30,300 nucleotides of DNA from a virus: UHGV virus genome UHGV-1280366. One strand, given 5' to 3'. This document shows positions 1-26,203 of this stretch, piece after piece. Numbering within the stretch: the stretch's first letter is position 1; each line of letters opens with the position of its first letter. Position numbers and translations under genes: made by a program. The notes under the pieces are model-generated. The model saw only the letters and a program-made list of their open reading frames with translations. It made no database searches and was not told the DNA's origin.

Positions 1-287
1 CATGATACCAACTCAGGTTAAAACAATGCTTAACAGTGGAGCAACATCAAGAGATTCAGCAGGGAAGAAACAGGTTCGTGTCTTCAATGCAAAATAACTT
101 CCCGCTGGACCCGAACGACAAAAACAATCAGGCAGCGGTAGACCGTTATTTCGCGCAGGATATCGCGCCTTCGTTTTCCATATCTGATCCGCAGAGCATC
201 AATACACTGGTCACCGTCACAACTAAAAGCGGCATGATACCAACTCAGGTTAAAACAATGCTTAACAGTGGAGCAACATCAAGAGAT
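1..287. repeat. 55-bp exact direct repeat, copies at 1-55 and 233-287 (offset 232 bp)
   Basis: Identical strings catgataccaactcaggttaaaacaatgcttaacagtggagcaacatcaagagat at both positions; flanks diverge (tcagc vs cctgc). Copy 1 may extend upstream of the window. Confidence 0.9.
2..97 (+). CDS. 3' end of an upstream virion gene, truncated by the window start; reads ...MIPTQVKTMLNSGATSRD... then stops at TAA 95-97
   Basis: Open frame 2 from the window edge to TAA at 95-97; shares the 18-aa peptide encoded by the 55-bp repeat with the next ORF. Partial, function unknown. Confidence 0.3.
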   Translation: MIPTQVKTMLNSGATSRDSAGKKQVRVFNAK

Positions 288-1223
288 CCTGCGCTGGTTG
301 TCCCGATGGCAAAATTCTACGGTCAGTTATTCGATAATAATCCGGCGGCAGCGGCAACACTTGATAAAAGTACGATGGCATTTTACGGCAAGGTTTACGA
401 TTATTCCCGCGCTGGCGTGCCGGAGGATAAGGCTGTTGATATGGCTTACAGCCAGGTGTTCCAACAGGATGACCGAATGAAACAGATGCTTTCCACTGCC
501 ATGCGAGACAAAAAATATGTCGCGGCGAGGGCAACTGCTGCACAAAATAACGCCAGCAGTCTGACTTCCTTTGGTTCGTGGTCTCCGGATATTACCGATC
601 CAGGAAAATCAAATGCGGCCTATCAGCGAGATTACCAGACAATTTACGATGCTAACTTTGTACAGACAGGTGGCGATGCAGAACAGGCTGAGAAAATGAC
701 CAATGCCATGATCAGAACCACCTGGGGAGTTTCTACGGTTAATGGCAAAGCAGAGGTTATGAAGTATGCACCTGAGGCATTGTACGGAGTAAATAATGGT
801 GCTGGTAACTGGATACAGGGGCAGTGGGAGCAGGAAAAACGCGAGCTTAAATCAAAATCCTTTGGCGGTCCTCGCAGTGATACGGACTTAATACTTGTTT
901 CTGATGGCCTTACGGCAAGGGATAGGAGTTATGCTGTTATGGTTTTACAGCCTGACGCAAACGGAGCGATAGAACCGAGAAATTATATTGGAGAAAATGG
1001 TCTCCCTGTTCGTTTCAAGCCGGATCAACTGACATCTCCAATGTACAGGCAAACCATTCAGTTACAGCAACAGCGTGTTGATGAGGCTAGAGTGCGGAGA
1101 GAAGGCAATCCGCTGCCGCAGTTCAGCAATAAAGATGGATATACTCCTCCAGATCTGACCAAACCATTCGGTTATGGTTCAGCCAATTACCTTCCGAGCA
1201 ATATATACGCAGGGGGCAAATAA
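36..1223 (+). CDS. virion protein, putative DNA-ejection/internal protein (395 aa); start uncertain (ATG 36 or internal ATG 234)
   Basis: Long ORF with ATG start; stop overlaps the next start (TAATG at 1221-1225), indicating translational coupling within the structural operon upstream of the tailspike. Function inferred from position only. Confidence 0.55.
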   Translation: MEQHQEIQQGRNRFVSSMQNNFPLDPNDKNNQAAVDRYFAQDIAPSFSISDPQSINTLVTVTTKSGMIPTQVKTMLNSGATSRDPALVVPMAKFYGQLFDNNPAAAATLDKSTMAFYGKVYDYSRAGVPEDKAVDMAYSQVFQQDDRMKQMLSTAMRDKKYVAARATAAQNNASSLTSFGSWSPDITDPGKSNAAYQRDYQTIYDANFVQTGGDAEQAEKMTNAMIRTTWGVSTVNGKAEVMKYAPEALYGVNNGAGNWIQGQWEQEKRELKSKSFGGPRSDTDLILVSDGLTARDRSYAVMVLQPDANGAIEPRNYIGENGLPVRFKPDQLTSPMYRQTIQLQQQRVDEARVRREGNPLPQFSNKDGYTPPDLTKPFGYGSANYLPSNIYAGGK

Positions 1224-4200
1224 TGCCGATATATGAACAGAATCCTAAAGAGTTGCTTGGCGAGGATATTCAGCAAATAGCAGCACCTGATGACAGTAAT
1301 TTCTATATGGAAACACCTTCTTTGCTTTCTGCTGTGAACCCATTTACCAGTGATCAACGCGTTCAAAGGTCTAGACAAGCAGCATTTCGTATAGATAACA
1401 CGCTGGGTAGCTTTATTGCCAGTGCTCCTTTCAGTCAGTTTGACAGGGTTGAAGGATATAACCCATTTGATAACGATGCAGCAGATATTAAAGGCTATGA
1501 AGATTTTGCAGATTCGTTTATCAACTCCGGTTCGCATGAAGAAACAATGGCAATTAAACATCGAATCGATAAGCAAAGAACAGATAGAGAATATCTATCT
1601 GAAATGGGTGGTGCTGGTACTATTTCAAGCTTAGCAATGGGAATGATAGACCCGGTTAATGTGGCTGCAATGTTCATCCCTGTAGGGGCGGTAGCGCGTG
1701 GAGGAAGTATTGCTGAGACGGCAGGGCGTTTTGCCCTAGCGAATGCTGCTGGTGGGGGAGTATCAGAAGCCGCATTACAGGCCACTCAGGAAGCTCGCTC
1801 ACCGATGGAGAGCGTATCGAACGTTGTTGTTGATGCTCTCGTTGGTGGGATCCTTGGTGCTGGTGCACAGCTACTTGCTGGACCTAGCGCGCGCGAGGCA
1901 GTGGTTAACTCAGTAGGTAATCATTTGCGAGGTATGGATTCTCCTCAAAGCATTGGTGCAGCTCAGGTTTTCAATACCACACTCGATCAGGAACAGCTCG
2001 CTGGACTTGGACTTGCTAACAAAACGTTGAGTGTCACTCCTGCTGGCCGCTTGGCTCAATCACCATCTCTTGTCTCCCGTCAGATTAACCAGCAGCTTGC
2101 CGAAAATAACTATTTCTTCGCCAAAAATGATGAGGGGTTGGCTACGTTTACGGCAGTCGAGACTAAGATTAAGCAATACGACGCCATGCTTTATAAGCAG
2201 ATGGAAGCCACTCGTGATGCTTACCAGCAGTACAGCAAATCTGTTAGCGCCCGCGGCGTGAAGAGGATGAGCTTTATTGATTTCAATGAAGCTGTTGGCA
2301 TGGCTATGCGCCGTGGTGATCAGAGTGATATTCCTGAGGTTTCACAAGCAGCCGCCAGAATCCGCCCCATTTTCGAGACCACAAAAGCCCGTATGCAGGA
2401 ACTGGGGATCCTTCCTGAGGATATCGATGTCGTGACGGCGAAAAGTTATCTTCCCCGCATTTATAAGTTCGATAAGATACTTTCCGACCGCACTGAATTC
2501 AGAGGGCGAATTGCCAACTGGATACAAGGGATTAGTGCCAAAGGTGCTGACAAAGCAGGTCAGCGAATTGAAAGGATAAATTCATTGCTAAAAACTGCAG
2601 AGGAATCGGCACCGCGCGCTGATGCTCTCGCTAGTGAAATCGCTGAAGCGGAGAAATGGTCTGGTAAAAAAATTCTACTTATGGAAGAACTGGATAAACG
2701 AAATAAGCTTATATCTCAGGAGACTGACACACAGGCGCGTCTTACAAGAATAGAAAAAGAGTTGGCCGAGACTTCATCAGAAAAACTTCAGGCAAGAATG
2801 ATGAAAGAAAGCTCTGACCTTAAAACACGCCTTGATGATATAGCGCAGGCAAAGAGTGAGCTTCCTGTCTATCAGCGCCATATGGAGTTGCTGGATAATC
2901 CACGGAAATATCGTTCTGAGCTTCGCCGACTGCAAAAACGGGCAAATTCAACCACAAGGCTGAATGCAAGCCGCGAACGAGCACTGAAGCAGATGGAGCC
3001 TCTATCCCGAGAGGAAGCAGAGGACGCTGCTGACGAGATCGTGAATAAAATAATAGGCGCACCTTCCGGGCTTGTACCAGCCGATATTATCCCAGAGAGA
3101 CTCGTTGGTCGGGCTGGTTTCACTAAAAGCAGAACGCTGCTTATTCCTGATGAGCGTATAGAAGATTTTCTTGAATCAGATGTTAACTACATCATGGAAA
3201 GTTATCTCCGGCAGGTGGCACCAGAAATTGAGCTGACTGCGCAGTTTGGCCGTAAAGATATGGGGGAGCAAATCCGTCAGGTTAGTGAGGAATATACCCG
3301 GCTAATAAAAGAGGCTAAAACACCTAAACGACGTGCAGTTCTTGAGAAGCAACGGGAGGCTGATATTAGGGATATTACGGCTATGCGTGATCGACTGCTT
3401 GGTACTTACGGTGCACCTCAAGATCCACGCAGTTTCTTTGTTCGTGCCGGGCGAGTTGCTAGGAATATTAACTTCCTCCGTTTGCTTGGTGGAATGACTG
3501 TCTCCGCTGCAACTGATCTGATGCGACCGATGATGCAGCATGGCCTGAGAAAATCTCTCGGACCAATGGTAAGCATGCTTAAAAATATGGACTCAGTGAA
3601 AATTGCAACCAGGGATTTGCGAGAAATGGCCGTTGGGCTTGATTATGTCCTGTCTACGCGTACAAAGGCTATAGCGGATCTTACTGACCCCTATAGCCGG
3701 AGAAGCGCCGCTGAGCGAGGTCTGAACTGGATGACGCAGAAATTCGGTAACTGGACGCTGATGAATCAGTGGAACAGCGCACTTAAATCATGGTCCGGGA
3801 TGATAGTGCAGTCGAGGATACTTGACGCGGCTCGCCAAGTTTCTGCTGGTGGCACGCTCTCCAAAAGTGAAATGCGGAAGATGGCACAGGTCGGCATCAA
3901 TGAAGATGTTCTGCGCCGAATCGGGGAGCAATTCGGGAAGCACGGAGAGGATATGGACGGGCTGTTAACCGGGCATAGTCATCTGTGGGATGACCGTTTC
4001 GCTAGAGAGATTTTCCAGTCTGCAGTGCTGAAAGATGTAGACTCAGTGATTGTAACGCCTGGCGTAGGTGATACACCGCTGTTTTTTAGTAAAGAAGGCT
4101 GGAAGATGATCACGCAGTTCAAAACGTTTATCTTCGCACAGCATAACAGGGTGCTAGTATCTGGTATCCAGCAGGGCGATGCTGCATTCTATCTTGGTGC

Positions 4201-4612
4201 GCTTGGCACGATTGCGCTTGGCTCAATGGTCTATATGATGAAACAGAAGTTAAGCGGTCGCGATATCGACTACAGCTGGAATAACCTTGTGAAAGAGGGG
4301 ATCGACCGGGGCGGAATGCTTGGCTGGCTCTCTGAGCCGCTGAATACCGTTGAGAACATAAGCGGCGGTAGGTTTGGTCTTGGCGCGATGTTTGGTGCGC
4401 CTCCGGTATCAAGGTTTCAGAGTCGTAATGCTATTGGTGCTTTACTTGGTCCTACCTTTGATCTTGGCGGTGATGCCGCGACGGTTGCGAATGGTGTACT
4501 TAACGGAGAATTTGACAGCCAGCAAACCCACGCGGTCCGTAAAATGCTACCTTTTCAGAACCTGTGGGCGATATCACCGTTACTAAATAAAGTTGAAGAG
4601 CAGATGAAATAG
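1223..4612 (+). CDS. large virion protein (1129 aa), putative DNA-ejection/internal virion protein
   Basis: 3.4-kb uninterrupted ORF; Gly/Ala-rich hydrophobic segment near residues 130-230, charged coiled-coil-like central region, hydrophobic C-terminal part. Last large gene of the structural module before the accessory island and tailspike. Family not recognised. Confidence 0.75.
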   Translation: MPIYEQNPKELLGEDIQQIAAPDDSNFYMETPSLLSAVNPFTSDQRVQRSRQAAFRIDNTLGSFIASAPFSQFDRVEGYNPFDNDAADIKGYEDFADSFINSGSHEETMAIKHRIDKQRTDREYLSEMGGAGTISSLAMGMIDPVNVAAMFIPVGAVARGGSIAETAGRFALANAAGGGVSEAALQATQEARSPMESVSNVVVDALVGGILGAGAQLLAGPSAREAVVNSVGNHLRGMDSPQSIGAAQVFNTTLDQEQLAGLGLANKTLSVTPAGRLAQSPSLVSRQINQQLAENNYFFAKNDEGLATFTAVETKIKQYDAMLYKQMEATRDAYQQYSKSVSARGVKRMSFIDFNEAVGMAMRRGDQSDIPEVSQAAARIRPIFETTKARMQELGILPEDIDVVTAKSYLPRIYKFDKILSDRTEFRGRIANWIQGISAKGADKAGQRIERINSLLKTAEESAPRADALASEIAEAEKWSGKKILLMEELDKRNKLISQETDTQARLTRIEKELAETSSEKLQARMMKESSDLKTRLDDIAQAKSELPVYQRHMELLDNPRKYRSELRRLQKRANSTTRLNASRERALKQMEPLSREEAEDAADEIVNKIIGAPSGLVPADIIPERLVGRAGFTKSRTLLIPDERIEDFLESDVNYIMESYLRQVAPEIELTAQFGRKDMGEQIRQVSEEYTRLIKEAKTPKRRAVLEKQREADIRDITAMRDRLLGTYGAPQDPRSFFVRAGRVARNINFLRLLGGMTVSAATDLMRPMMQHGLRKSLGPMVSMLKNMDSVKIATRDLREMAVGLDYVLSTRTKAIADLTDPYSRRSAAERGLNWMTQKFGNWTLMNQWNSALKSWSGMIVQSRILDAARQVSAGGTLSKSEMRKMAQVGINEDVLRRIGEQFGKHGEDMDGLLTGHSHLWDDRFAREIFQSAVLKDVDSVIVTPGVGDTPLFFSKEGWKMITQFKTFIFAQHNRVLVSGIQQGDAAFYLGALGTIALGSMVYMMKQKLSGRDIDYSWNNLVKEGIDRGGMLGWLSEPLNTVENISGGRFGLGAMFGAPPVSRFQSRNAIGALLGPTFDLGGDAATVANGVLNGEFDSQQTHAVRKMLPFQNLWAISPLLNKVEEQMK

Positions 4613-5053
4613 CTATTCACAATTAGTGATGGCGTATGTATCAAATATATTGCCATCACTAAATACATACCTATACTCAATCTCTCCGCCAAGGTGAATA
4701 AATGCTTTCATTTGCCTGTTGGAGCAAATGCTCGATTTTGAATAATTTCGCATTACACTCTTTAATTTATTTTCTAAGGTTACATCACCATTATAAACTT
4801 TTGATAAATAGCTGTTGTTGTAATTAAGATGCGCTACAACTAAGAGTTTGTTTAGTATTGCATTTATTGAAACAATAGACATATTATCATTCAATTTTAT
4901 GGGAAGTGACTTTCCTGCTTCTGATGCAATTTTGTTTGCATGTGCACACATATCCTCATTTATTAAATTCTTAAAACATATGTCGTTTGCAAACGAAAAA
5001 ATTGGTAGGATAAACAAAACGGTAGCTGTAATAGCGTGCATCGGCTTAATCAT
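4613..5053 (-). CDS. small hypothetical protein with predicted N-terminal signal peptide (MHAITATVLFILPIFSFA); moron-like
   Basis: ORF in a visibly AT-rich stretch (about 4620-5050) unlike the flanking phage genes; hydrophobic N-terminus ending in A-x-A-like site. Alternative start at 5041. Diverges from the next gene with almost no spacer. Confidence 0.45.
   Translation of the reverse strand: MIKPMHAITATVLFILPIFSFANDICFKNLINEDMCAHANKIASEAGKSLPIKLNDNMSIVSINAILNKLLVVAHLNYNNSYLSKVYNGDVTLENKLKSVMRNYSKSSICSNRQMKAFIHLGGEIEYRYVFSDGNIFDTYAITNCE
4623..4662. repeat. 11-bp perfect inverted repeat (ttagtgatggc / gccatcactaa) with 18-nt spacer
   Basis: Seen directly, at the convergent junction of the 1129-aa gene and the minus-strand gene 4613-5053; no flanking T-tract. 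Confidence 0.6.
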
Positions 5054-5065
5054 TAGGTGACCTTT

Positions 5066-5515
5066 ATGTTCAAGAAGATGATCAACAGATTAATCGGTGG
5101 TAAGGAGGTTAGCAATAAAATTCAACCTCTTATCTTTAAGGATAACTTTTCAGCTTTTGAGTATGCGTGTAAGTATCTTGACACAAGCCTTTCAGCCAAT
5201 AAACCAATGCCAGCCATCATCATACCTGGTCCCAGTGGGGAACAGCCAGTTTTGCTGGATTCTGGAAGACAAAGGGCAATGCTGAAGGTGTGCTCAGCTG
5301 ATGGTGGATTTTTTGTTATTGCCGATTCATCTTACAGCAAAGGACCAAAGCTGAGGATTGGTGATCTTGTTGCTTGGTTGCCTGTGAGTTATGCCGAAGA
5401 ATTAACGGATAAAATAGAAGATCCTCGCTCCGCTATGGTTGGCTTTATATTGGGAACCATTCATCCTGAACTAACATCTACTGGCTGGAAGGGTAAAGAA
5501 AGATTTCGCAAGTAG
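5066..5515 (+). CDS. hypothetical protein (about 149 aa)
   Basis: ORF; track start 5057 is GTG, so ATG 5066 was chosen, preceded by AGGTGA 6 nt upstream; followed by an intrinsic terminator. Confidence 0.5.
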   Translation: MFKKMINRLIGGKEVSNKIQPLIFKDNFSAFEYACKYLDTSLSANKPMPAIIIPGPSGEQPVLLDSGRQRAMLKVCSADGGFFVIADSSYSKGPKLRIGDLVAWLPVSYAEELTDKIEDPRSAMVGFILGTIHPELTSTGWKGKERFRK

Positions 5516-5529
5516 CGTGACATGTCACA

Positions 5530-5553
5530 GGCCGCTTTCGCGGCCTTGTTTTT
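5530..5553 (+). terminator. rho-independent terminator (GGCCGC-tttc-GCGGCC then TTGTTTTT)
   Basis: Perfect 6-bp GC stem, 4-nt loop, T-rich tail immediately after the stop of 5066-5515. Confidence 0.6.
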
Positions 5554-5593
5554 AACGAATGCCACCGCCGCCCGGGTGGGAATCCGCAGACAC

Positions 5594-5614
5594 AAAAAAG
5601 CCCGCGCCGCGGGC
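5594..5614 (-). terminator. rho-independent terminator for minus-strand gene 5620-6252
   Basis: On the minus strand GCCCGCG-g-CGCGGGC followed by TTTTTT (A-run 5594-5599 on the + strand). Confidence 0.55.
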
Positions 5615-5619
5615 TTCTA

Positions 5620-6252
5620 TTAATGCAGTTTATCTTTGCTTATAACCAGTAGTCTGTGGGTATGCACATCTTTATCACTGCCCCAACAGAAATCAGCCCA
5701 CTGGCTATAGAAATCATCCCATGATGTCATGAAGCTAAGAGGTCTATCTTCTTCAGAGCCATCTGAAACGTATACATTATATCCCGGGGTGTTTATAGCC
5801 CAAGAAATCATTCTTTCCCAGAATCTTCTCCCATCGATTGTTTGTTGCTCATCAGATACAACGATCGCATATTGCTCTAGGAAGAACTGAAAAAAAATCT
5901 GAGGCAAACCATGAACAGCACGGTCATGAATAACATTAGGCGTACGCCATACCATGATCTGCGTACATGTTCTTTTGGCTTCGACGATATCTTCCCGAAA
6001 GATTAACTTAACCGCATACACCGTTTCTGGAGTATCGCTGGTAGTAATCATTCTGTAATGATCGCCATTACAAGATTTTACAAGGCGATAACCATAAGGT
6101 GTTGTGAATCCCGGAAGAACGAAATCAACCACACCTTTCGCTAAGTAGCTTTCGGTGTGACTAGTGTTCTTCTCAGACATGTTCAGTTTTCTATCGAAAT
6201 CTGCTTCTGGGATAATGTATGGCATCGCTTTTCTTGTTGTATTTGTTTTCAT
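5620..6252 (-). CDS. hypothetical protein (210 aa), accessory island
   Basis: ORF with ATG at 6252 and GGAGG 6 nt upstream on the minus strand; bracketed by a terminator and an upstream TTACC-N5-GGTAA palindrome. No family recognised. Confidence 0.6.
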   Translation of the reverse strand: MKTNTTRKAMPYIIPEADFDRKLNMSEKNTSHTESYLAKGVVDFVLPGFTTPYGYRLVKSCNGDHYRMITTSDTPETVYAVKLIFREDIVEAKRTCTQIMVWRTPNVIHDRAVHGLPQIFFQFFLEQYAIVVSDEQQTIDGRRFWERMISWAINTPGYNVYVSDGSEEDRPLSFMTSWDDFYSQWADFCWGSDKDVHTHRLLVISKDKLH

Positions 6253-6311
6253 TTCGTCCTCCCATGTTTGGCTACAGGACGCGTTTTGAAGGGAAGATTA
6301 AAAACGCTTTC

Positions 6312-6326
6312 TTACCCGTAAGGTAA
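6312..6326. promoter_or_regulatory. palindromic motif TTACC-cgtaa-GGTAA(TAT), copy 1 of 3
   Basis: Seen directly, about 60 bp upstream of minus-strand gene 5620-6252; same motif at 7372-7386 and 7754-7768. Confidence 0.35.
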
Positions 6327-6391
6327 TATTACGCGAATCTACATCACATCGCCAATGATTATTTTAAAGGCACATCCCTGTGCCGCCGCCG

Positions 6392-7102
6392 TCAGAAGAA
6401 CCCTGCCTTGTCGTTGATGTACTCCGCGTGCGTCTGGATATCACGCAGGCATTTGCTCACACCGACGATGTAGCAGAACATGGTGGTCAGCTCCGCCGCC
6501 GCGCCCGATACGTCGTGCCCGTCTTCCTGTAACTGGTTCAGCAGATTCATCAGCAGTGAGTTTTCCGTCAGGCCGAGAACACCAGACGGAGAATGAATCA
6601 GGCTGCGGTAGCCGGGCTTCAGTGGGGCGCTGTAGGTTTTGTTCTCTATCTTCATTGCCTGCATCACTGCTGATGCTGTGGCGTTGGCTACCTGGTCGGC
6701 AACCATCTTTATGCGTTCTTCCTGCGGGAGCGAGTTTTTAATGTAACTTCCTGTGCGGCGGATCTGAGGAAGAACCTCACCTGTAACCCATTTACGAAAG
6801 CGGTAGGGGATAGTGCCTGGTGTTACTGCATCGCGGCAGCGGAGGATCAGTGTGTAGAGGCCTGACTCGGAGATGATGTTGATCTCTTTTACTCGGCTGT
6901 CAAAAATTGCACGATGTTCATGCCCTATGTTGAACATAGACCTTTCATCATCATCCAGTTTTTCAAGTGATTGGGTGACGTTTTGGATACGCAGCGCACT
7001 ACAAACGTCTTGGGCTACAAACCATGGTTGGCCATCGATAATGATGGAACGGATAGGGTTAACAGATTCAAATTTGAAGATGGCAGTTTGAGCATTAGCC
7101 AT
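6392..7102 (-). CDS. Bro-N / KilA-N family antirepressor-like protein
   Basis: N-terminal region (FKFESVNPIRSIIIDGQPWFVAQDVCSALRI...) resembles Bro-N DNA-binding domains of phage antirepressors; start moved to MANAQ (ATG 7102) with GGAGATAA upstream. C-terminal domain is paralogous to the product of 7418-7675. Confidence 0.7.
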   Translation of the reverse strand: MANAQTAIFKFESVNPIRSIIIDGQPWFVAQDVCSALRIQNVTQSLEKLDDDERSMFNIGHEHRAIFDSRVKEINIISESGLYTLILRCRDAVTPGTIPYRFRKWVTGEVLPQIRRTGSYIKNSLPQEERIKMVADQVANATASAVMQAMKIENKTYSAPLKPGYRSLIHSPSGVLGLTENSLLMNLLNQLQEDGHDVSGAAAELTTMFCYIVGVSKCLRDIQTHAEYINDKAGFF

Positions 7103-7258
7103 GGTGGTTATCTCCACTTAGTGATTTTAATCACCACCGCAACGCCAATTACTGGTGGTGAACTGGACAAGGTTGGCGTACCGGCCTAAGTGGTACCGGC
7201 GTCCTTTCGGACCCCTGCCCAGCCCACCATAATTCGGATATAGCTGTGCTTAACGCAT

Positions 7259-7280
7259 AAAAAAACCACGTCTGGCGTGG
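7259..7280 (-). terminator. rho-independent terminator downstream of minus-strand gene 7418-7675
   Basis: CCACG-ccaga-CGTGG hairpin followed on the minus strand by seven T (A-run 7259-7265 on +). Confidence 0.55.
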
Positions 7281-7371
7281 TATGCGCCACTTAGTAACTC
7301 GGGACGCCAATCCCGGCACTGGATTTTGCCAGTGCCCGATTACTATGGCACAAGAGGAGTGCAATGTAAAT

Positions 7372-7386
7372 TTACCGCAAAGGTAA
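7372..7386. promoter_or_regulatory. palindromic motif TTACC-gcaaa-GGTAA(ATAT), copy 2 of 3
   Basis: Seen directly; between the stop of 7418-7675 and the terminator at 7259-7280. Confidence 0.3.
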
Positions 7387-7417
7387 ATATAAGCACTCCA
7401 TTTGGTAATTGCAAACC

Positions 7418-7675
7418 TTATCTGGTTTGTTTTCGTAATTGTTCGGCACAATAGTCGAGATGTGTTTGCAGATCCTGCATAGACATCTGTGAGCTGGTGA
7501 CGTAGTTAATCAGTGCAGTCAGTTCGGCAAGTGGGCCATCGACATTAAATCCATCCTTATCGAGATCCCGGAGTAATTTCATCAAGTGCGATCCCTCCAC
7601 CAGTGACCTGACGCCTCCCGGCGTGTGAATCCTTTCGGTAAATCCGTCTTCCAGTGGATAGTGATACTGCTGCAT
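7418..7675 (-). CDS. short antirepressor C-terminal-domain paralog (about 85 aa), candidate SOS-regulated antirepressor
   Basis: Product aligns with the C-terminal 65 residues of the 6392-7102 protein (shared IH.P.GV..L.E.S.LM.LL..L..DG..V.G..AELT...Y...D.QTH). ATG 7675 chosen for GGAGAAG about 8 nt upstream; alternative ATG 7690. Confidence 0.6.
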   Translation of the reverse strand: MQQYHYPLEDGFTERIHTPGGVRSLVEGSHLMKLLRDLDKDGFNVDGPLAELTALINYVTSSQMSMQDLQTHLDYCAEQLRKQTR

Positions 7676-7694
7676 CTTAATCTTCTCCATGCAA

Positions 7695-7714
7695 TAACTG
7701 TATGTTTATACAGT
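7695..7714. promoter_or_regulatory. LexA (SOS) box, aaCTGTATGTTTATACAGta
   Basis: Matches CTGT-N8-ACAG with an AT-rich spacer (consensus TACTGTATATATATACAGTA); 5-20 bp upstream of the start codons of 7418-7675; overlaps a TATAAA -10-like hexamer on the minus strand. Confidence 0.6.
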
Positions 7715-7753
7715 AGCAAATAATTTGTTTGCTATCCAGCACGTTTTGCAAAT

Positions 7754-7768
7754 TACCTGAAAGGTAAT
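7754..7768. promoter_or_regulatory. palindromic motif TTACC-tgaaa-GGTAA(TAT), copy 3 of 3
   Basis: Seen directly, between the LexA-box gene and the tailspike gene (about 100 bp upstream of ATG 7872). Confidence 0.35.
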
Positions 7769-7871
7769 ATCTATTCATATTCACAGTCTTTCTATCCATA
7801 TGTGGTTTTTCAGGTAATAGAATAACCAGATATGCGGCGCAACGGGTGCTGCGACTATCTGGAGATTTAAC

Positions 7872-9980
7872 ATGACGGTCTCAACCAAAGTTGACCACAA
7901 CGAATACACAGGTAACGGCGTTACGACATCGTTTCCGTATACTTTTCGAATTTTCAGAAAATCAGACCTGGTTGTTCAGGTGTCTGACCTGAACGGGAAC
8001 GTAACAGAATTGGTTCTGGATACCGGTTATACGGTAATTGGGGTGGGAGCTTATAGTGGTGGTACAGTGGTTCTTCCGTCGCCGCTTGCTGCTGGCTGGC
8101 GAATCACTATAGAGCGTGTGCTTGATGTGGTGCAGGAGACTGACCTTCGAAATCAGGGGAATTTTTTTCCAGAAGTTCATGAGGATGCATTTGACTACCT
8201 GACGATGCTGATTCAGCAGTCTTTTTCTGGTCTATCTCTTGCACTCAGAAAGCCATCACGTTTATCAAATTATTATGATGCTCGTGATAACAGAATCCAA
8301 AACTTAGCAAGCCCAATTCTCCCGAACGATGGTGTAAACCGTAATTTTGTAGAAAACCTTTTTATTGATAAAAGCGCATCTGCTTCTGCATTGCGCTCTT
8401 TGCTGGAAAGCGCAGCTGGGGCTGGAATAATTGGTACATTGCAGGGATTAACCGTTCAGTCAGTTTTAGATAATGTAAAAATCCCACTGACGTCATTCGT
8501 GTTTTCTATTCCTGATGATTTTGCTAATGCAGATTCTTTAGCAGAATATCTTGAAAATAGATGCTATACCGGCACGCAAGTAATAGTACATGTCTCAGCA
8601 GGCACTCATAATTGGAATACTCTAAATAAGATTTTTGGGAAAGAGTGGGGTTTTGGCCGACTTAAATTTGTTGGTGAAGGAATGGATTTGACAATTATTC
8701 AGTTTCTTAAACAGGACGGAATTTATGCTGAAGCAGGTGAGTGTTATGGTCATGCGCCACAGTTTCCCGTGAGTGGTGGTGATATAATACCAATATTTAG
8801 TAATTTAACTATATCAGGAATTGACAGAGATTCAGGAATTGATGATCCATATCTTGATTCAATGGGGATAAGGGCGTTTGACGGCGGTGTTGTTGTACTT
8901 GATGAAAGCGTAAGAATAACTCAGTTTTCCAGGTGTGGAGTTATGGCTGAGAGGCATGGTATAGCTTTTGTTCCTGGGGTTAAAGTCGATACTACAGGTT
9001 CTGATTGTTTCGCTGCCTCTGAAGGTGGTTATATCTATTGTCCAGACTCTACAGCAAGCAACCCGAAAGGTCATTGCTACATCGCATATTCTGGAGGGCA
9101 GCTTTATATGCCTAACTGTATTGCTCAGAATGCAGAGACACACAACTCGTCAAATGTAGGGGGATCTGGTCTTGTGTTGACCGGAAGCAGTTACGCTTAC
9201 GCTATTAATCTTCAAACTAAAAACAATGCTCAACGTGGAATTAGTGTGGCGTTAGGGTCTTTTCTACGAGCTGACGGGTTTACTGAGAGTGAAAATATTC
9301 TACCTGTGACTGTTTCGCAGGGTTCCACGTTGGTTTCTCCAAATTGCACAATAAACAAACCAGATGCTCTTGCGCTTTTAATTGAGAAAGGAGGAAAGGC
9401 ATTTTTCCAGGTAGCAACAACTGATAAGTTTACTATGTATGGTAGAGCAACAGTACAGTCAATGGGGGTTCTTCATGCACCAGATGGCGACATAACGAAC
9501 AGTTCAGGCAATTCAATATCTGCAATTAACTCAACAGTTGACGTTGACAGAACAACTTTCCATGGTTCTCCTGCTGTAGCTATCTATGCCATGGATGGAG
9601 CGATGGTTAAATGTAGCAATGGAGAATCTCAGACAACTACAGGGACAACAATTATTGCTCAAAATGCAAAGGTTATCGCTGATGGCTTTAAGGTAAAAGG
9701 AAATCCATCAATAGGGTTTAGAGCAACTATGTCTGGAATAATTTCTGCGAAAAACACATCAGTTATCAAGGCCGGTCAATATGGTTACTTTTCTGAAAAT
9801 ATGGGGGCATTTATTGATGCTACAGGTGCTACAGTAGGAGATGCTTTCTCTGGTTTTAAAGCAATAAACGGAGCCAGAATTAATGCTACGCAATCAGATG
9901 CTACAGGATCATATACAGGAGGTGCTTATAGCCCATCAGTAAATTTAGCAGATGAAAAACTAACAATAATAATAAAGTAA
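7872..9980 (+). CDS. tailspike / tail fibre protein (702 aa)
   Basis: N-terminus (NEYTGNGVTTSFPYTFRIF...DLVVQV) carries the conserved podovirus tail-fibre/tailspike N-terminal adaptor motif; Gly/Ser/Thr-rich C-terminal 500 aa consistent with a beta-rich receptor-binding domain; GGAG RBS; last late gene before attP. Confidence 0.8.
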   Translation: MTVSTKVDHNEYTGNGVTTSFPYTFRIFRKSDLVVQVSDLNGNVTELVLDTGYTVIGVGAYSGGTVVLPSPLAAGWRITIERVLDVVQETDLRNQGNFFPEVHEDAFDYLTMLIQQSFSGLSLALRKPSRLSNYYDARDNRIQNLASPILPNDGVNRNFVENLFIDKSASASALRSLLESAAGAGIIGTLQGLTVQSVLDNVKIPLTSFVFSIPDDFANADSLAEYLENRCYTGTQVIVHVSAGTHNWNTLNKIFGKEWGFGRLKFVGEGMDLTIIQFLKQDGIYAEAGECYGHAPQFPVSGGDIIPIFSNLTISGIDRDSGIDDPYLDSMGIRAFDGGVVVLDESVRITQFSRCGVMAERHGIAFVPGVKVDTTGSDCFAASEGGYIYCPDSTASNPKGHCYIAYSGGQLYMPNCIAQNAETHNSSNVGGSGLVLTGSSYAYAINLQTKNNAQRGISVALGSFLRADGFTESENILPVTVSQGSTLVSPNCTINKPDALALLIEKGGKAFFQVATTDKFTMYGRATVQSMGVLHAPDGDITNSSGNSISAINSTVDVDRTTFHGSPAVAIYAMDGAMVKCSNGESQTTTGTTIIAQNAKVIADGFKVKGNPSIGFRATMSGIISAKNTSVIKAGQYGYFSENMGAFIDATGATVGDAFSGFKAINGARINATQSDATGSYTGGAYSPSVNLADEKLTIIIK

Positions 9981-11236: not shown

Positions 11237-11500
11237 GGTAAAAATCCGGTGGGTAAAATTATTTTATCCACTTTTTACCCGTCATGGTGTGCGGCTGTCA
11301 ACGATCTGACGCGAACCATGACGAACCGTGAATATACGGAAGGCTTGATATTCAGGGGATTTTGCGGACTGGTGCGGATGGGAGCGAACTGATAAATGGT
11401 GTCCCCTGCAGACATCTACTTGAGGCAGCAGGGGATTGATTGGAATGGTGTTTTTGAGATGTGAGAAATATTTTACCCGCTATTTTACCCATTGGCGCGG
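11233..11500. repeat. cluster of GGGTAAAA / TTTTACCC octamer repeats around the int start and the int-xis spacer
   Basis: At least five copies in both orientations (about 11235, 11252, 11273, 11473, 11486); possible Int/Xis or regulator binding sites. Confidence 0.4.
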
Positions 11501-16505: not shown

Positions 16506-17093
16506 TCAGAAAGGAGGGTAATCGTTCTGGCTGTAACCATAATCATCTGCATGATTCTGGCTTACGTTTTTAGAGCGATTGTCTTTATCTTTGAGATTGG
16601 CAACCATGTTGGCGATAGTTTCTGGTTGCTTGCCTTCTGCCTTTTCTTTTAGGGTTTGACCTGTTTGTGCAATAAACGGGATGCGTATCTCCATCTGGTA
16701 ACTGTCTGCGCCAGTCTTTTTGTTTGTGGTTAATACTTTCTGGAGCACTAACCCGATTTTCTTTCCGTGAAACTCAGGAGCAACAAATTTACTGGCGGAA
16801 ACCATATGTTGCGTTAATTGCCCAATCCCGGCACACCCCATCATAGCGTGAACGACATTTGCGCCAAATTTGTTTTCCGTGCCGTCATTTTTCTGAACAC
16901 AAACGCTAAGATACTGGATTTTACGACCGTCGTCGGATTCTCCAGAAAACTCAATAAATTTGGCTCCTTTTTCTGATTGCTTTAGTTCTGCTTCAGTAAT
17001 TGTAATGATATGAGCGCCAGTTTCGTTAATAAAACCGCCTTGTCCTGCGGTCAGTGCTGCTTCTTCGTTATAAGTAAAAATCACGTTGCTCAT
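16506..17093 (-). CDS. putative single-stranded DNA-binding protein partnered with the Sak4-like ATPase
   Basis: Start overlaps the stop of the ATPase gene (ATGA); ends in an acidic/aromatic tail (...DDYGYSQNDYPPF) reminiscent of SSB C-terminal tails. Assignment is inferential. Confidence 0.5.
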   Translation of the reverse strand: MSNVIFTYNEEAALTAGQGGFINETGAHIITITEAELKQSEKGAKFIEFSGESDDGRKIQYLSVCVQKNDGTENKFGANVVHAMMGCAGIGQLTQHMVSASKFVAPEFHGKKIGLVLQKVLTTNKKTGADSYQMEIRIPFIAQTGQTLKEKAEGKQPETIANMVANLKDKDNRSKNVSQNHADDYGYSQNDYPPF

Positions 17094-17770
17094 GCGGCGT
17101 TTTCCTTAATTTGATGAACATTATTGATGCCGTAGTAATCACAAACAGTGGCATCGACGAAAGAGAGATCGTTATCAATCTCATTGGAGTCAAACATTCC
17201 CATTGGGGATTTAACAGTGTCTGCACCGTTGTTTTTTGTGGTGAAAAAGAACTGGTCATCGCGGGTAAGAGTGCGAAGAACTATAGTAAACATGCCTTCG
17301 ACAGTGATTTTCTCGTCCAGCATTTTGCCGATAGTCTTCATTTTCACGCGCCCCATAGGGGTTTCTTCGGTGTGCGCAAGAAAATAGACTCTCAGGTCAT
17401 CAGGTGCATCCTGTGCAGCCTTAATCACCTCCCATGCGTGGCGGCCTATCTCAGTAAATTTATCAAACGATTTTTCTTCTGAGCGGCGCATAAACTCATT
17501 GCTCATCACATACTGGAAGTCATCAACAATAACGATTCTTTTTCCGTATTCGTGAGCACGCTTAATTACAGCAACTATTACGTCCCATTTGTCAGTGGTA
17601 ACTACGGTTCCTTTTTTTGCTCTGGCATCCCATGCAAGCCAGTCTTTTGATTTAAATGGTAGCGGCTTGCCTATTGGTTTTATAAGTATTGCATCCTCTG
17701 GATTGATATTTCTCATGCTGGTTGATTTTCCGGTGCCAGACTCACCGAGTATTAATGTTGCAGTTCCCAT
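17090..17770 (-). CDS. Sak4-like RecA-fold ATPase (recombination/annealing module)
   Basis: Walker A GESGTGKST near the N-terminus and hhhhDD Walker B (IVIVDDFQ); size and position match Sak4-type proteins in lambdoid early-left operons. Confidence 0.7.
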   Translation of the reverse strand: MGTATLILGESGTGKSTSMRNINPEDAILIKPIGKPLPFKSKDWLAWDARAKKGTVVTTDKWDVIVAVIKRAHEYGKRIVIVDDFQYVMSNEFMRRSEEKSFDKFTEIGRHAWEVIKAAQDAPDDLRVYFLAHTEETPMGRVKMKTIGKMLDEKITVEGMFTIVLRTLTRDDQFFFTTKNNGADTVKSPMGMFDSNEIDNDLSFVDATVCDYYGINNVHQIKENAA

Positions 17771-17778
17771 AATTTTCC

Positions 17779-17967
17779 TCAGAATGGTAATTCGGATGGG
17801 GAGGAAAGAAACTCGCGCTCATTCATGCGCTCTCTTTGCGCCTGCCATAAACAAAGTTGTTTCTTTGATTTATCTCCCGCTTTACGCCAGTAACGAGCCT
17901 CAGCAATGTGATATTCTCTTTTTAATCTACTTAACTCTGGAGTTTTCGCCAGTTCTACCGGAATCAT
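17779..17967 (-). CDS. small hypothetical protein (62 aa)
   Basis: ATG 17967 with GGAGG RBS, abutting the kil-like stop. Confidence 0.4.
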   Translation of the reverse strand: MIPVELAKTPELSRLKREYHIAEARYWRKAGDKSKKQLCLWQAQRERMNEREFLSSPSELPF

Positions 17968-18077
17968 TTTGACCTCCATTTTCTGTAGGCTTCGACGGCC
18001 TCACGAAACATCTTTTCATCGCCAATAAAAGCGGCGATAGTGAATTTAGTCTGGATAGCCATAAGTGTTTTATCCAT
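17964..18077 (-). CDS. kil: Kil-like host-killing protein
   Basis: MDKTLMAIQTKFTIAAFIGDEKMFREAV... resembles lambda Kil as recalled; AGGAG RBS; sits immediately downstream of cIII as in lambda. Confidence 0.5.
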   Translation of the reverse strand: MDKTLMAIQTKFTIAAFIGDEKMFREAVEAYRKWRSK

Positions 18078-18210
18078 TTTTTGGGACTCCTGGCTGATTA
18101 AGTATGTCGATAAGGCGTTTCCACCCGTTACGTAATTTACGGGTGATTCGTTCAAGTAAAGATTCGGAAGGGCAGCCAGCAACAGGCCACCCTGCAATGG
18201 CATATTGCAT
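18070..18210 (-). CDS. cIII: CIII protease-inhibitor (stabilises CII)
   Basis: MQYAIAGWPVAGCPSESLLERITRKLRNGWKRLIDILNQPGVPKNG is near-identical to lambda CIII as recalled; AAGGAG RBS. Confidence 0.8.
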   Translation of the reverse strand: MQYAIAGWPVAGCPSESLLERITRKLRNGWKRLIDILNQPGVPKNG

Positions 18211-18270
18211 GGTGTGCTCCTTATTTATACATAACGAAAACGCCTCGAGTGAAGCGTTATTGGTATGCAT

Positions 18271-18294
18271 ATAAAAGGCCCTCAATCTGAGGGC
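18271..18294 (-). terminator. tL1-like rho-independent terminator between N and cIII
   Basis: GCCCTCA-gat-TGAGGGC hairpin followed on the minus strand by TTTTAT. Confidence 0.6.
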
Positions 18295-18387
18295 AAAGAA
18301 GATTTCCAATAATCAGAACAAGTCGGCTCCTGTTTAGTTACGAGCGACATTGCTCACATAGCAGACTCGTAAATCTGCTATAGGTGC

Positions 18388-18549
18388 TTATTCGCATCGC
18401 ATGACAACATCAAATTTTTCGAGATTACTTTGTCGCAACAATCCCTCTTCTACGCGGTCAGCTTTTCTATAATTATCAAATTCGAAATGTTTAATTACTT
18501 CTTTCGTTTCTCGCTCTATAACTTCAACGATGTATTTCTTATTCATCAT
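18388..18549 (-). CDS. small hypothetical protein (about 53 aa, MMNKKYIVEVIERETKEV...), not in the ORF track
   Basis: ATG with GGGGAAG RBS; between N and tL1 where lambdoid phages carry small genes such as ral. Confidence 0.35.
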   Translation of the reverse strand: MMNKKYIVEVIERETKEVIKHFEFDNYRKADRVEEGLLRQSNLEKFDVVMRCE

Positions 18550-18663
18550 TCTTCCCCAAGAGATTTGCTGATTGCTGACTGTGCTTTCGATACTTCATCA
18601 GGATAATGGTCATTCCAGTTTTGCTTGTATGCCTTGTTTAGCATCGCTTGCAGGGCATTCCTG

Positions 18664-18801
18664 TTATTTATCCCACCAAGTTCCGTATCTATCTATCCAG
18701 TTACACCAGTCATCGACACTCCATTTTGTTGTGTCGCATTTTGGCAACTGGCATGAATATCTACCTTCTTTGTAAAGTCGACGTTTGACTTTCTTGAGCA
18801 T
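18664..18801 (-). CDS. small Cys/Trp-rich hypothetical protein (45 aa), not in the ORF track
   Basis: ATG 18801 immediately after the N stop; open to TAA. Confidence 0.3.
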   Translation of the reverse strand: MLKKVKRRLYKEGRYSCQLPKCDTTKWSVDDWCNWIDRYGTWWDK

Positions 18802-18809
18802 GGCTCACC

Positions 18810-19115
18810 TCAATCGTAATAAGCCGGAATTGATTTTCCGCGTTGCTTCTGGCGGCCTGAGCAAGTCACCCCCATTTCACTGCGTGGCTTGCGGTAGTAA
18901 ATACGGTTCTGTTTACTCTCGACTTCTTCTGCCTTCTTGCAGCGAAGGCTTCCGAGTGAAGCTGCTTTGTCTGCTCTGACGCAACCGGAGAGCTTTAGCG
19001 CAATTTTTCGCGCCAGTCGCTGCTCTTGCATTGCCTGCTCACGTTGAGCCTGTCTGCGTGCTCTGCGGCGATTTCTGGCGTTATCGTCAGCCAGATATGT
19101 AATGACTACTGCCAT
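18810..19115 (-). CDS. N: antiterminator N (arginine-rich motif; phage-21-like)
   Basis: N-terminal ARM (NARNRRRARRQAQREQ); C-terminal ...ARKIALKLSGCVRADKAASLGSLRCKKAEEVE... matches phage 21 N as recalled; GGAGG RBS; downstream of nutL. Confidence 0.85.
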   Translation of the reverse strand: MAVVITYLADDNARNRRRARRQAQREQAMQEQRLARKIALKLSGCVRADKAASLGSLRCKKAEEVESKQNRIYYRKPRSEMGVTCSGRQKQRGKSIPAYYD

Positions 19116-19220
19116 GTTGACCTCCGATGATTGACTTTGGCGGTGACGCGCCGGGTGCTTATCTTCCGGTTGCCGTCGTGCAGCTGCACTTCACGTCACC
19201 CCAAAGCCAACTACTCTTTG

Positions 19221-19263
19221 GTTCCCGCATTTCGGCGGGACAATCCCATCAATGTTAAAGAGC
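19221..19263 (-). promoter_or_regulatory. nutL (boxA GCTCTTTAACA plus boxB hairpin TCCCGCCGAAATGCGGGA on the minus strand)
   Basis: boxA-like element 5' of a stem-loop; the boxB sequence is identical to that of nutR. Confidence 0.7.
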
Positions 19264-19299
19264 CTGCCAATCTGTTCCGTTTGGCTACCAGCGTCCTGC

Positions 19300-19380
19300 T
19301 GATGGCTTAAATTTAAGATCTCTTTAATTAATGGTCAAGAGTATTTTTGAAGAAAACTTAAATTTTCTTTCGTAACTTAA
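19300..19380 (-). promoter_or_regulatory. pL promoter with OL operators
   Basis: Minus strand: -35 TTGACC (19337-19332), 17-bp spacer, -10 TAAATT (19314-19309); overlapping ATTTAAG...CTTTAAT-type palindromes resembling P22-type operators. Confidence 0.6.
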
Positions 19381-19429
19381 GTTTGGCTTTGATTTTTAAA
19401 GGAAATAAAAAAAAGGGGCGAATGCCCCC

Positions 19430-20080
19430 TTATGGAAGGTTTGCTAGTTTTGCATCGACAACTACGCCGATGATTTTGCAGTTTCCGTTGATCTCGATCA
19501 TCGGATATTGTGGGTTAAGTGGTTTTAGAAACTTCCTGCCTGCATCAATAACTAACTTCTTGAAAGTTGCCTCGTTTTCTCCTTCGAGCTTTGCAACTAC
19601 CAGTTTCCCGTTACGCGGCTCTACTTCAGGATCGACAAGTATTATCATTCCTTCAGGGATACTGAGACCGGCCGGAGCCGTCATTGAGTCTCCCTTCACG
19701 TCCAACCAAAACGAATCTTCTGAACAGTCTACGGTTGTATCGTACCAGTTATCTATTGCACGCTTATGATATGGTTCTACAGCTTCCATCCAGCATCCTG
19801 CGCTCACCCAGCTAATCAGAGGGAATGACCCTCTTGGATCATGCCTACTGTGATAGGCAATGTTTGAAAGACTTTCCTCTCCTTTCATCAGATAGTCAGG
19901 GGAACACTTCAACGCATTAGCCAGGGCGAGAAGATTCTCTCCATTTGGCTCTGTCTCAGAGCGTTCCCACTGAGATATGGCAACATTAGACACGCCGACC
20001 ATCTTTCCAAGTGCGGCCTGCCTGATCTTGAGTTCTTTTCTCCGAGCGCGAATGCGCTCTCCCATCAATTGAGTTTTCAT
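19430..20080 (-). CDS. c2: c2/CI repressor (HTH plus LexA-like S24 autopeptidase domain)
   Basis: Protein is near-identical to P22 c2 as recalled (MKTQLMGERIRARR...VVDAKLANLP); Ala-Gly cleavage site and Ser/Lys peptidase domain. Confidence 0.95.
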   Translation of the reverse strand: MKTQLMGERIRARRKELKIRQAALGKMVGVSNVAISQWERSETEPNGENLLALANALKCSPDYLMKGEESLSNIAYHSRHDPRGSFPLISWVSAGCWMEAVEPYHKRAIDNWYDTTVDCSEDSFWLDVKGDSMTAPAGLSIPEGMIILVDPEVEPRNGKLVVAKLEGENEATFKKLVIDAGRKFLKPLNPQYPMIEINGNCKIIGVVVDAKLANLP

Positions 20081-20150
20081 AGTTAAGACATCTTAAATAA
20101 ACTTGACTTAAGATTCCTTTAGTGGATAATTTAAGTATTCTTTAATTTCG
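20081..20150. promoter_or_regulatory. OR operator region with pR (-35 TTGACT 20103-20108, -10 GATAAT 20125-20130); divergent pRM expected
   Basis: Three P22-type operator palindromes (e.g. AGTTAAGACATCTTAAAT, AATTTAAGTATTCTTTAATT) between c2 and cro; sigma-70 hexamers with 16-bp spacing. Confidence 0.65.
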
Positions 20151-20160
20151 GAGCGAGTCT

Positions 20161-20346
20161 ATGTACAAGAAAGATGTTATCGACCACTTCGGAACCCAGC
20201 GTGCTGTAGCTAAAGCGTTAGGCATTAGCGACGCAGCAGTCTCTCAGTGGAAGGAAGTCATCCCAGAGAAAGACGCCTATCGACTGGAAGTCGTTACAGC
20301 TGGCGCCCTGAAGTATCAAGAAAGCGCTTACCGCAAAGCGGCATAA
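20161..20346 (+). CDS. cro: Cro repressor
   Basis: MYKKDVIDHFGTQRAVAKALGISDAAVSQWKEVIPEKDAYRLE... matches P22 Cro as recalled; GGAG RBS. Confidence 0.9.
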   Translation: MYKKDVIDHFGTQRAVAKALGISDAAVSQWKEVIPEKDAYRLEVVTAGALKYQESAYRKAA

Positions 20347-20351
20347 GCAAA

Positions 20352-20397
20352 TTGCTCTTTAACAGTCATGGTCCTCATTCCCGCCGAAATGCGGGAA
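20352..20397 (+). promoter_or_regulatory. nutR (boxA TGCTCTTTAACA plus boxB hairpin TCCCGCCGAAATGCGGGA)
   Basis: Immediately downstream of the cro stop; same boxB as nutL. Confidence 0.7.
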
Positions 20398-20454
20398 TAC
20401 AACGCGCATAAGTTGATGCGCATAACTTCTTATTTGTTAAGGAAATACTTACAT

Positions 20455-20748: not shown

Positions 20749-20780
20749 GGTCATTACTGGATCTATCAACAGGAGTCATT

Positions 20781-23768: not shown

Positions 23769-23797
23769 ATGACCATCTACATCACTGAGCTAATAAC

Positions 23798-24983: not shown

Positions 24984-25387
24984 CAATGCTTTTAATTCAA
25001 CCTGGATTTGGCCTTAGCATCAAAAAAGGGCACATGTTTGGCGAGAAAGAGTCTCAACGAAAAATGGTGTCGATACAGTTGCCATTTATCAGTATTTGTT
25101 GGCTAAACAGGGAGGCAACAAATTATTGGTATACATGCGCCAGAGCAGCATTTAACGACCCTGACTGGTTTGTGAATAACCACCACGCAGTTCGTCAGGC
25201 AAAGAGAAAGGCCAATACGACATACATGAAGGCGTATCGAAAAGCATGGAAAGAACACCGGGATCGATACCAGCAAGACATGGAAAAGCTTGAATCAGAA
25301 AACATGGAATTAAGACGAAAGCTTGGTGAAGCAAAACGAGACATTGATGCTTACAAGCGACTTTTTAATGGTGAAAGCCATGCTTAG
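24980..25387 (+). CDS. hypothetical nin-region protein (NinX-like by position)
   Basis: ORF between ninE and ninF; track start is GTG, ATG 24980/24986 with GAGGAA RBS; its 3' part lies inside the duplicated unit. Confidence 0.5.
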
Positions 25388-25556
25388 CCCATCCCAATCC
25401 CTTCAATACCAGAAAGAAAGCGTCGAGCGGGCTTTAACGTGCGCTAACTGCGGTCAGAAGCTGCATGTGCTGGAAGTTCACGTGTGTGAGCACTGCTGCG
25501 CAGAACTGATGAGCGATCCGAATAGCTCAATGTACGAGGAAGAAGACGATGAGTGA
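25380..25556 (+). CDS. ninF: NinF (copy 1)
   Basis: [58 protein letters not shown] matches lambda NinF as recalled. Confidence 0.8.
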   Translation: MLSPSQSLQYQKESVERALTCANCGQKLHVLEVHVCEHCCAELMSDPNSSMYEEEDDE

Positions 25557-25671
25557 TTACCTGAAATGGTATCTCTGCCACCGCTGGTTAATTAAGTTTG
25601 CTGTAAAAGACTGGATGACAGCGGATGCCAACAAGCTTAAGCAAAGAGAAAGGCCAATACGACATACATGA
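25549..25671 (+). pseudogene. truncated chimeric copy of the 70-aa gene created by the duplication junction (MSDYLK...[14 protein letters not shown])
   Basis: Same start context as 25991-26203 but the frame runs across the junction into a new stop after 40 codons. Confidence 0.45.
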
Positions 25672-25821
25672 AGGCGTATCGAAAAGCATGGAAAGAACAC
25701 CGGGATCGATACCAGCAAGACATGGAAAAGCTTGAATCAGAAAACATGGAATTAAGACGAAAGCTTGGTGAAGCAAAACGAGACATTGATGCTTACAAGC
25801 GACTTTTTAATGGTGAAAGCC

Positions 25822-25998
25822 ATGCTTAGCCCATCCCAATCCCTTCAATACCAGAAAGAAAGCGTCGAGCGGGCTTTAACGTGCGCTAACTGCGGTCAGA
25901 AGCTGCATGTGCTGGAAGTTCACGTGTGTGAGCACTGCTGCGCAGAACTGATGAGCGATCCGAATAGCTCAATGTACGAGGAAGAAGACGATGAGTGA
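25822..25998 (+). CDS. ninF: NinF (copy 2, identical duplicate)
   Basis: Identical sequence to 25380-25556, shifted by 442 bp. Confidence 0.75.
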   Translation: MLSPSQSLQYQKESVERALTCANCGQKLHVLEVHVCEHCCAELMSDPNSSMYEEEDDE

Positions 25999-26203
25999 TT
26001 ACCTGAAATGGTATCTCTGCCACCGCTGGTTAATTAAGTTTGCTGTAAAAGACTGGATGACAGCGGATGCCAACAAGCTTAAGCAAAGAAAAGACTATTA
26101 CTACGCCAGAATGAAGGAAAACTACTGCTCAATTCGCACTCGCATATTTATTAAAAAAGACCTTCAGTCAATTCTTCAATTGCGAGGGAAGGTAAATGGC
26201 TAA
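25991..26203 (+). CDS. hypothetical nin-region protein (70 aa)
   Basis: ORF with ATG overlapping the ninF stop (ATGAGTGA); intact only in the second copy. Confidence 0.5.
   Translation: MSDYLKWYLCHRWLIKFAVKDWMTADANKLKQRKDYYYARMKENYCSIRTRIFIKKDLQSILQLRGKVNG

Follow-up and report, generated by a model that had tools for sequence, protein, structure and literature searches.

A 55-bp direct repeat at the start of a 30.3-kb phage sequence, probably the assembly stub of a 232-bp duplication joint within one internal virion protein gene

The window analyzed in this study is a stretch of 30,300 nucleotides from a virus (UHGV virus genome UHGV-1280366), and its first 55 nucleotides recur a short distance downstream within what related phages carry as a single internal virion protein gene. 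We believe that this 55-bp repeat is probably the k=55 stub of a 232-bp duplication joint located at the start of a contig and that the real genome contains an intact gene. We infer that base 1 of the window is also base 1 of the contig and that the joint stems from no fixed mutation. Instead, the library would have contained joint-bearing molecules that either represented a minority variant or had arisen by polymerase template switching in vitro, and an assembler operating at k=55 would have turned them into a loop of the assembly graph. The contig would begin on the back-edge of this loop and hence with the 55-mer leading up to the branch point. Under this explanation, the gene would really be single, no separate "upstream" and "downstream" products would exist, and the length of 55 would reflect the assembler rather than biology. 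The 55-bp repeat itself is most likely no biological feature, and a biologically meaningful element of this length is unlikely.

The repeat and the gene in which it lies

The two copies of the 55-mer (Table 1) are identical, and the match is lost at positions 56/288, where TCAGC stands against CCTGC. Exact repeats of at least 25 nt occur only twice in the 30.3-kb window, at offsets of 232 and 442, and according to our own arithmetic, the chance occurrence of an exact 55-nt repeat in 30 kb is about 1e-25. Window 51-1300 is colinear with positions 6001-7250 of Escherichia phage EC.W1-9 (record L001; 99.7% identity), in which the 55-mer is found once. Bases 56-232 are native and colinear with all of the relatives; the misplaced bases are window 1-50 only, and the GAGAT sequence at 51-55 is common to both partners of the joint. 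The novel joint is oriented head to tail, with window 1-55 (equal to L001 6183-6237) running directly into the sequence that starts at L001 6006. It reads X/TCAGC (window 40-70, with X for the end of the 55-mer), and the alternative junctions are ...GGGAGTGG/GAGATTCAGC and X/CCTGC. The geometry of this joint is exactly that of a 232-bp head-to-tail tandem duplication, the left copy of which is visible for its last 55 nt only. A tandem duplication is recognized by a novel head-to-tail joint and by short homology at the joint; the former is present, and the latter is found both here (GAGAT) and at a second duplication in the same window (GCAAAGA).

The 232-bp unit corresponds to nt 1581-1812 of a gene encoding 915 aa, from the third position of codon 527 to codon 604. 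Because 232 equals 3 x 77 + 1, a second copy shifts the reading frame. An in silico duplication of the unit in the intact gene of the E. coli contig L012 yields a product of 617 aa, consisting of residues 1-604 and 13 frameshifted residues, and the tail of this product is exactly the peptide of the ORF at 2..97. This ORF of 31 aa reads MIPTQVKTMLNSGATSRD followed by SAGKKQVRVFNAK and ends with the stop codon at 95-97, and MIPTQVKTMLNSGATSRD is encoded by both copies of the 55-mer. The 395-aa ORF that follows in another frame (36..1223) has a GTG start, and its nearest in-frame ATG is at 87. A Shine-Dalgarno sequence is visible before neither GTG 36 nor ATG 87.

Window 1-1300 is 99.7% identical to phage EC.W1-9 and approximately 84% identical to two Klebsiella phages. 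In EC.W1-9, the region falls within one CDS of 2,748 bp (915 aa), which is directly followed by a CDS for a protein of 1129 aa, and the same arrangement is found in Klebsiella phage ST512-KPC3phi13.3, with a single CDS of 914 aa. The nearest relatives are 99.7-100% identical to the window, and in EC.W1-9 and 10 E. coli contigs, the 55-mer is present once, inside the single 915-aa gene. A single 55-mer was found in all 12 close relatives, where the bases upstream of window position 51 are ...GATAGGGAGTGG. Among these relatives, L012 (GCA_012403565.2) is 100.000% identical to window 51-8865 (8,815 bp) and contains an intact 915-aa gene with one 55-mer. Furthermore, the profile PHROG 1044 (900 positions) spans residues 1-903 of the 915-aa protein, and the 395-aa ORF of the window covers only profile positions 515-900. 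PHROG 992 matches residues 1-523, which form an N-terminal module common to other phage protein families, and the transglycosylase-type region lies within the N-terminal part that is absent from the window. A Pfam search of the 915-aa protein gave no match. Because the relatives have one gene across the site and the family profile is unbroken, the start of the window is not a boundary between two genes.

A 192-aa protein with a Pfam T7_gp14 match precedes the 915-aa gene, which is followed by the 1129-aa gene, and PHROG annotates the cluster with the terms internal virion protein and transglycosylase. BPP-1-type capsid and head genes (GP7, Bbp16, and Bbp19) are located upstream of the 192-aa gene. 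The identical 1129-aa protein occurs on 24 contigs, and the 915-aa gene and, before it, the 192-aa gene precede it in all 10 places listed. In gene order and PHROG annotations, this region resembles an ejection cluster of the T7 gp14-gp15-gp16 type, as found in BPP-1/EC.W1-9-like prophages; however, the 915-aa family members of this cluster are unsplit, and the repeat is no feature of the family. On these comparisons, the window begins inside a single internal virion (ejection) protein gene of a BPP-1/EC.W1-9-like temperate podovirus.

The 1129-aa protein also has a marginal Pfam match to DUF919, a nucleopolyhedrovirus family (23.4 bits vs. a cut-off of 21, residues 530-575), and its RefSeq name, "DUF919 family protein", is based on this match, which is probably coiled-coil noise.

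A preliminary description of the window reported the exact 55-bp repeat, an upstream ORF with its stop at 95-97, a 395-aa ORF, and a common peptide encoded by both copies, and each of these is present in the sequence or its ORF list. The codon at 36, which was described as ATG, is GTG. The remark about a possible extension of copy 1 beyond the window was apt because this copy is cut by the window start. An ancestral single gene was also proposed, and the uninterrupted gene of 914-915 aa in EC.W1-9, the Klebsiella phage, and the 10 E. coli contigs agrees with this proposal; an alignment with orthologous virion genes, suggested there as a check, gives one uninterrupted gene and a single 55-mer in 12 of 12 relatives. 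With respect to the suggested origin, which was an insertion or duplication of about 232 bp or a recombination scar, the geometry bears out a duplication, whereas an insertion or a foreign scar is contradicted by the native bases at 56-232. The placement of the repeat at the boundary of two virion genes must be abandoned because the "upstream ORF" is a frameshifted continuation of the duplicated piece of the same gene.

Table 1. Coordinates of the repeat, the duplications, and the surrounding genes in the window
Feature	Position	Strand	Basis or remark
Displaced 55-mer (copy 1)	1..55	+	Identical to 233-287; would be the 55-nt end of the left 232-bp copy and the branch vertex of a k=55 de Bruijn graph
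5-nt microhomology GAGAT	51..55	+	Matches the end of the 55-mer and L001 6001-6005 (native bases preceding TCAGC)
232-bp duplication unit, native position	56..287	+	Colinear with L001 6006-6237 and L012 8834-9065
Native 55-mer (copy 2)	233..287	+	Single copy in EC.W1-9 (L001 6183-6237) and L003-L012 (9011-9065)
Frameshifted tail, ...TSRD + SAGKKQVRVFNAK, then stop	2..97	+	ORF list and in silico duplication; no separate gene
3′ part (codons 526-915) of the 915-aa internal virion (ejection) protein gene	51..1223	+	99.7-100% identity to EC.W1-9 and 10 E. coli contigs
1129-aa internal virion protein gene (gp16-position analogue)	1223..4612	+	PHROG 342 "internal virion protein with endolysin domain", E = 4.6e-235
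Perfect 442-bp tandem duplication with 7-nt microhomology GCAAAGA	25199..26089	+	Exact identity at offset 442 over 449 positions

A second duplication and the composite window

The repeat at offset 442 lies in the nin region. Positions 25199-25647 are exactly equal to 25641-26089, and two complete copies of the 442-bp unit are present. The unit, the length of which is 1 mod 3, contains ninF together with the 3′ end of a ninE-like ORF and codons 1-33 of a 70-aa ORF, and one intact copy of each gene remains. Phages E212 and ECP1 contain the unit once, as does a Logan contig from another sample (L021, SRR2298102) that is 99.99-100% identical to window 16990-30195. The 40-mer across the joint of this duplication occurs in none of 5,426 complete E. 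coli genomes. Both duplications are perfect, private, and bounded by microhomology, and the 442-bp duplication is probably a product of the same process that generated the 232-bp joint. According to our own estimate, random joints would carry microhomologies of 5 and 7 nt with a joint chance of approximately 3e-6, and the joints are therefore attributed to polymerase template switching or strand annealing, whether in vivo or in vitro. Neither blunt ligation nor a naive concatenation of contigs accounts for the two joints. The 232-bp case is similar to the microhomology-mediated tandem duplications that arise by slippage in E. coli and phages, by illegitimate recombination, or by in vitro template switching, with which it has in common the head-to-tail joint of native sequence, the 5-nt microhomology, and the perfect identity, and a complete sibling of 442 bp lies in the same window. 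However, the putative 232-bp duplication displays only 55 nt of its left copy.

The window also combines two types of phage. Window 1-9724 corresponds to a BPP-1/EC.W1-9-like prophage (99.7-100% identity), and from approximately 10030 onward, the sequence is that of a P22/HK620/Sf6-like lambdoid phage, with an IntS integrase, early genes, a nin region, Q, and lysis genes. The P22-like part runs to the point where the records of Sf6-/JEP4-like phages end, and from these records, we assume that the terminase genes follow after the end of the window. The tailspike gene (7872-9980) equals the BPP-1-type allele (L003/L012) up to 9589 except for three substitutions, and from 9513 to its end, it equals the P22-type allele (L016) except for one substitution. 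These alleles have long exact stretches in common at approximately 8811-9589, and the crossover lies inside a common stretch. The core of the att site is at approximately 11390-11411. In chromosomal prophages, the match extends on the int side to 11411, which in L016 overlaps the 3′ end of a tRNA-Arg gene (argW), and on the xis side it starts at 11390/11397. Because phage DNA flanks the core on both sides, the site is an attP, and the P22-like part is in the excised or virion form. In the E. coli assembly GCA_014486175.1, both types of prophage are found at separate loci or contigs, with L003 being BPP-1-like and encoding the identical 1129-aa protein and L025 being lambdoid and encoding a 194-aa early protein identical to that of the window. 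Each half of the window is therefore represented by a prophage of its own, and the two prophages reside together in this assembly. The simplest reading is that the window is probably a chimeric assembly path that crosses from one phage to the other through the common tailspike segment, and it is possibly a true recombinant. The private 442-bp duplication and the type-switching tailspike indicate that the assembly is error-prone or the sample heterogeneous.

The length of 55 nt and the rival explanations

In a de Bruijn graph, a duplication joint gives rise to a loop, and the last k-mer common to both continuations (X with CCTGC and X with TCAGC) becomes the branch vertex; a contig that starts on the back-edge of the loop begins with exactly this k-mer. 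Copy 1 is exactly 55 nt long, counted from window base 1, and this length is the default overlap of SPAdes and metaSPAdes. Default metaSPAdes graphs have overlaps of 55 bp (PMC12133742), and the ends of SPAdes contigs overlap by 55 bp (PMC8851603). If the window had started at an arbitrary point of a genuine 232-bp left copy, then the probability of exactly 55 visible nucleotides would be about 1/232. The 55 nt at window base 1 thus imply that the window probably starts at a contig end on a graph loop. A k-mer overlap is further marked by its absence from independent assemblies, and the arrangement is absent from L012, from 12 of 12 relatives, and from the 5,426 genomes. Moreover, contig L012 ends at window position 8865, which is exactly 55 nt past 8810. 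Position 8810 marks the last difference between the window and the P22-type tailspike allele of L016 ahead of a near-identical stretch. This coincidence suggests that the end of L012 is itself a k=55 end and that a sister assembly was broken at the same common tailspike repeat.

The repeat resembles the known k-mer overlaps at the ends of de Bruijn contigs from SPAdes and metaSPAdes in its length of 55 nt, its position at the first base, its perfect identity, and its absence from independent assemblies. Terminal overlaps of this type have been mistaken for terminal repeats (bioRxiv 10.64898/2026.07.08.737226). In the usual case, the genome is circular and its first 55 nt equal its last 55 nt, whereas here the partner copy lies 232 bp downstream, as in a short loop, and the joint X/TCAGC is novel and must derive from reads. 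De Bruijn assemblers invent no joints, and thus joint-bearing molecules or reads must have existed. A 79-bp internal repeat in a SPAdes-based short-read assembly of phage Tokugawa was an artefact according to Sanger sequencing (PMC10438801). The likeness to this example consists of a short exact repeat inside a phage genome in a SPAdes-based assembly; however, the Tokugawa repeat was settled by Sanger and long-read data, whereas the repeat studied here is only a probable artefact. The direct terminal repeats of phages were also considered as an identity and were rejected because both copies lie within a single coding sequence at a distance of 232 bp.

Since coverage guides SPAdes in resolving short loops, the assembly of the 442-bp duplication as two full copies suggests that its joint was not rare, and as a counterpoint to the reading as an artefact, microhomologies of 5 and 7 nt are what replication slippage in vivo produces. 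It is thus conceivable, though on balance rather unlikely, that a genuine 232-bp duplication arose by microhomology slippage in vivo and was fixed; the full left copy would then immediately precede the window or span the two ends of a circular contig. Such a mutation would split the gene into the 617-aa product and at best a re-initiated C-terminal fragment starting at ATG 87 or GTG 36; the stop at 95-97 overlaps ATG 87, and this overlap could allow translational coupling, but neither start has a Shine-Dalgarno sequence. The geometry of the joint and its 5-nt microhomology suit slippage, a complete duplication of similar style is present in the window, random joints with both microhomologies would be very rare, and the joint is not of a kind that assemblers make up. 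In addition, prophages commonly decay through duplication-type mutations. However, the visible copy has exactly the default length of the assembler and begins at window base 1, and the joint is absent from all of the other assemblies searched, including a prophage that is 100% identical. A fixed duplication would also knock out a conserved virion gene, which contrasts with the intact attP of the excised form in the P22-like part, and two private duplications in what are possibly two replicons point to a process at the level of the sample. We consider it very improbable that the duplication is both genuine and fixed in a viable phage, with an essential ejection protein of approximately 900 residues made as two overlapping polypeptides. 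If this were true, then residues 1-604 with a 13-residue tail would be accompanied by a second polypeptide of 378-395 residues from the C-terminus, for which translation would restart at the overlapping stop and start; the split would adjoin the end of the N-terminal module (PHROG 992, residues 1-523), and the internal virion protein would tolerate fission at that point.

A joining artefact produced entirely in silico, in which overlapping contig ends or a rotated circular contig were concatenated without trimming, would require no joint-bearing molecule. Untrimmed overlaps are a known source of tandem duplicates, and this sequence contains two perfect ones. Terminal k-mer overlaps have been discussed (bioRxiv 10.64898/2026.07.08.737226). 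However, plain concatenation predicts a repeat length equal to the offset, and here the match runs 7 nt past the 442-bp offset and the 232-bp unit has a 5-nt microhomology at its border. Chance would rarely produce such features, which template switching typically leaves behind, and the start of the window 55 nt before the joint would be left unexplained. As the main cause, plain concatenation was ruled out because both joints have microhomology beyond the repeat unit, and we hold this explanation as a whole to be highly doubtful. Even less credit, amounting to next to none, is given to the view that two distinct virion genes are parted by approximately 177-232 bp of inserted or recombined sequence (a foreign scar) or that the 55-bp repeat is a functional site for recombination or recoding. 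The bare repeat and the two overlapping ORFs are all that speak for it, and against it stand the native bases at 56-232 and the relatives with one gene and one copy. The family profile is unbroken across the site, and the other features of an element, such as inverted repeats and tRNA genes, are lacking. A foreign insertion or recombination scar was ruled out because bases 56-232 are native and colinear, and a tRNA-linked or inverted-repeat element was ruled out because no tRNA genes and no inverted repeats of at least 30 nt were found.

The probable explanation by an assembly stub is relevant mainly to quality control. If taken at face value, the repeat would burden the annotation of a conserved ejection-protein gene with a truncated gene and a new N-terminus, both of them spurious. 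The 55-nt stub, the 442-bp duplication, and the switching tailspike suggest that this contig is unsuited to claims on gene content or mosaicism that are made without the reads. If the duplications are real, then they are ordinary slippage mutations, one of which disables a virion gene of a prophage.

Searches for the joint in other sequences

The joint is private to this sequence. The region is carried by 120 of 5,426 complete E. coli genomes, and the joint 40-mer occurs in none of the 5,426. It was also absent from IMG/VR, the JGI metagenomes, and the GTDB representative genomes in an exact DNA scan. With the joint 20-mer, four matches of only 20-22 nt were obtained, in an archaeon, a planctomycete, and two unrelated metagenome contigs, and these matches are due to chance. 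Exact protein look-ups found no record of the 31-aa, 395-aa, and 378-aa ORFs, of the 40-aa ORF at the joint of the second duplication, of the hybrid 702-aa tailspike, or of the 265-aa early protein. A search with the joint peptide (...TSRDSAGKKQ...) gave no protein containing it among the matches listed, which is a weak negative because the full-length 915-aa clusters are not among these matches.

The joint-peptide search also returned short frameshifted fragments of the 915-aa gene from several public assemblies (P0002-P0009, 78-148 aa). None of them has the joint, and they look like the products of indel-rich assemblies.
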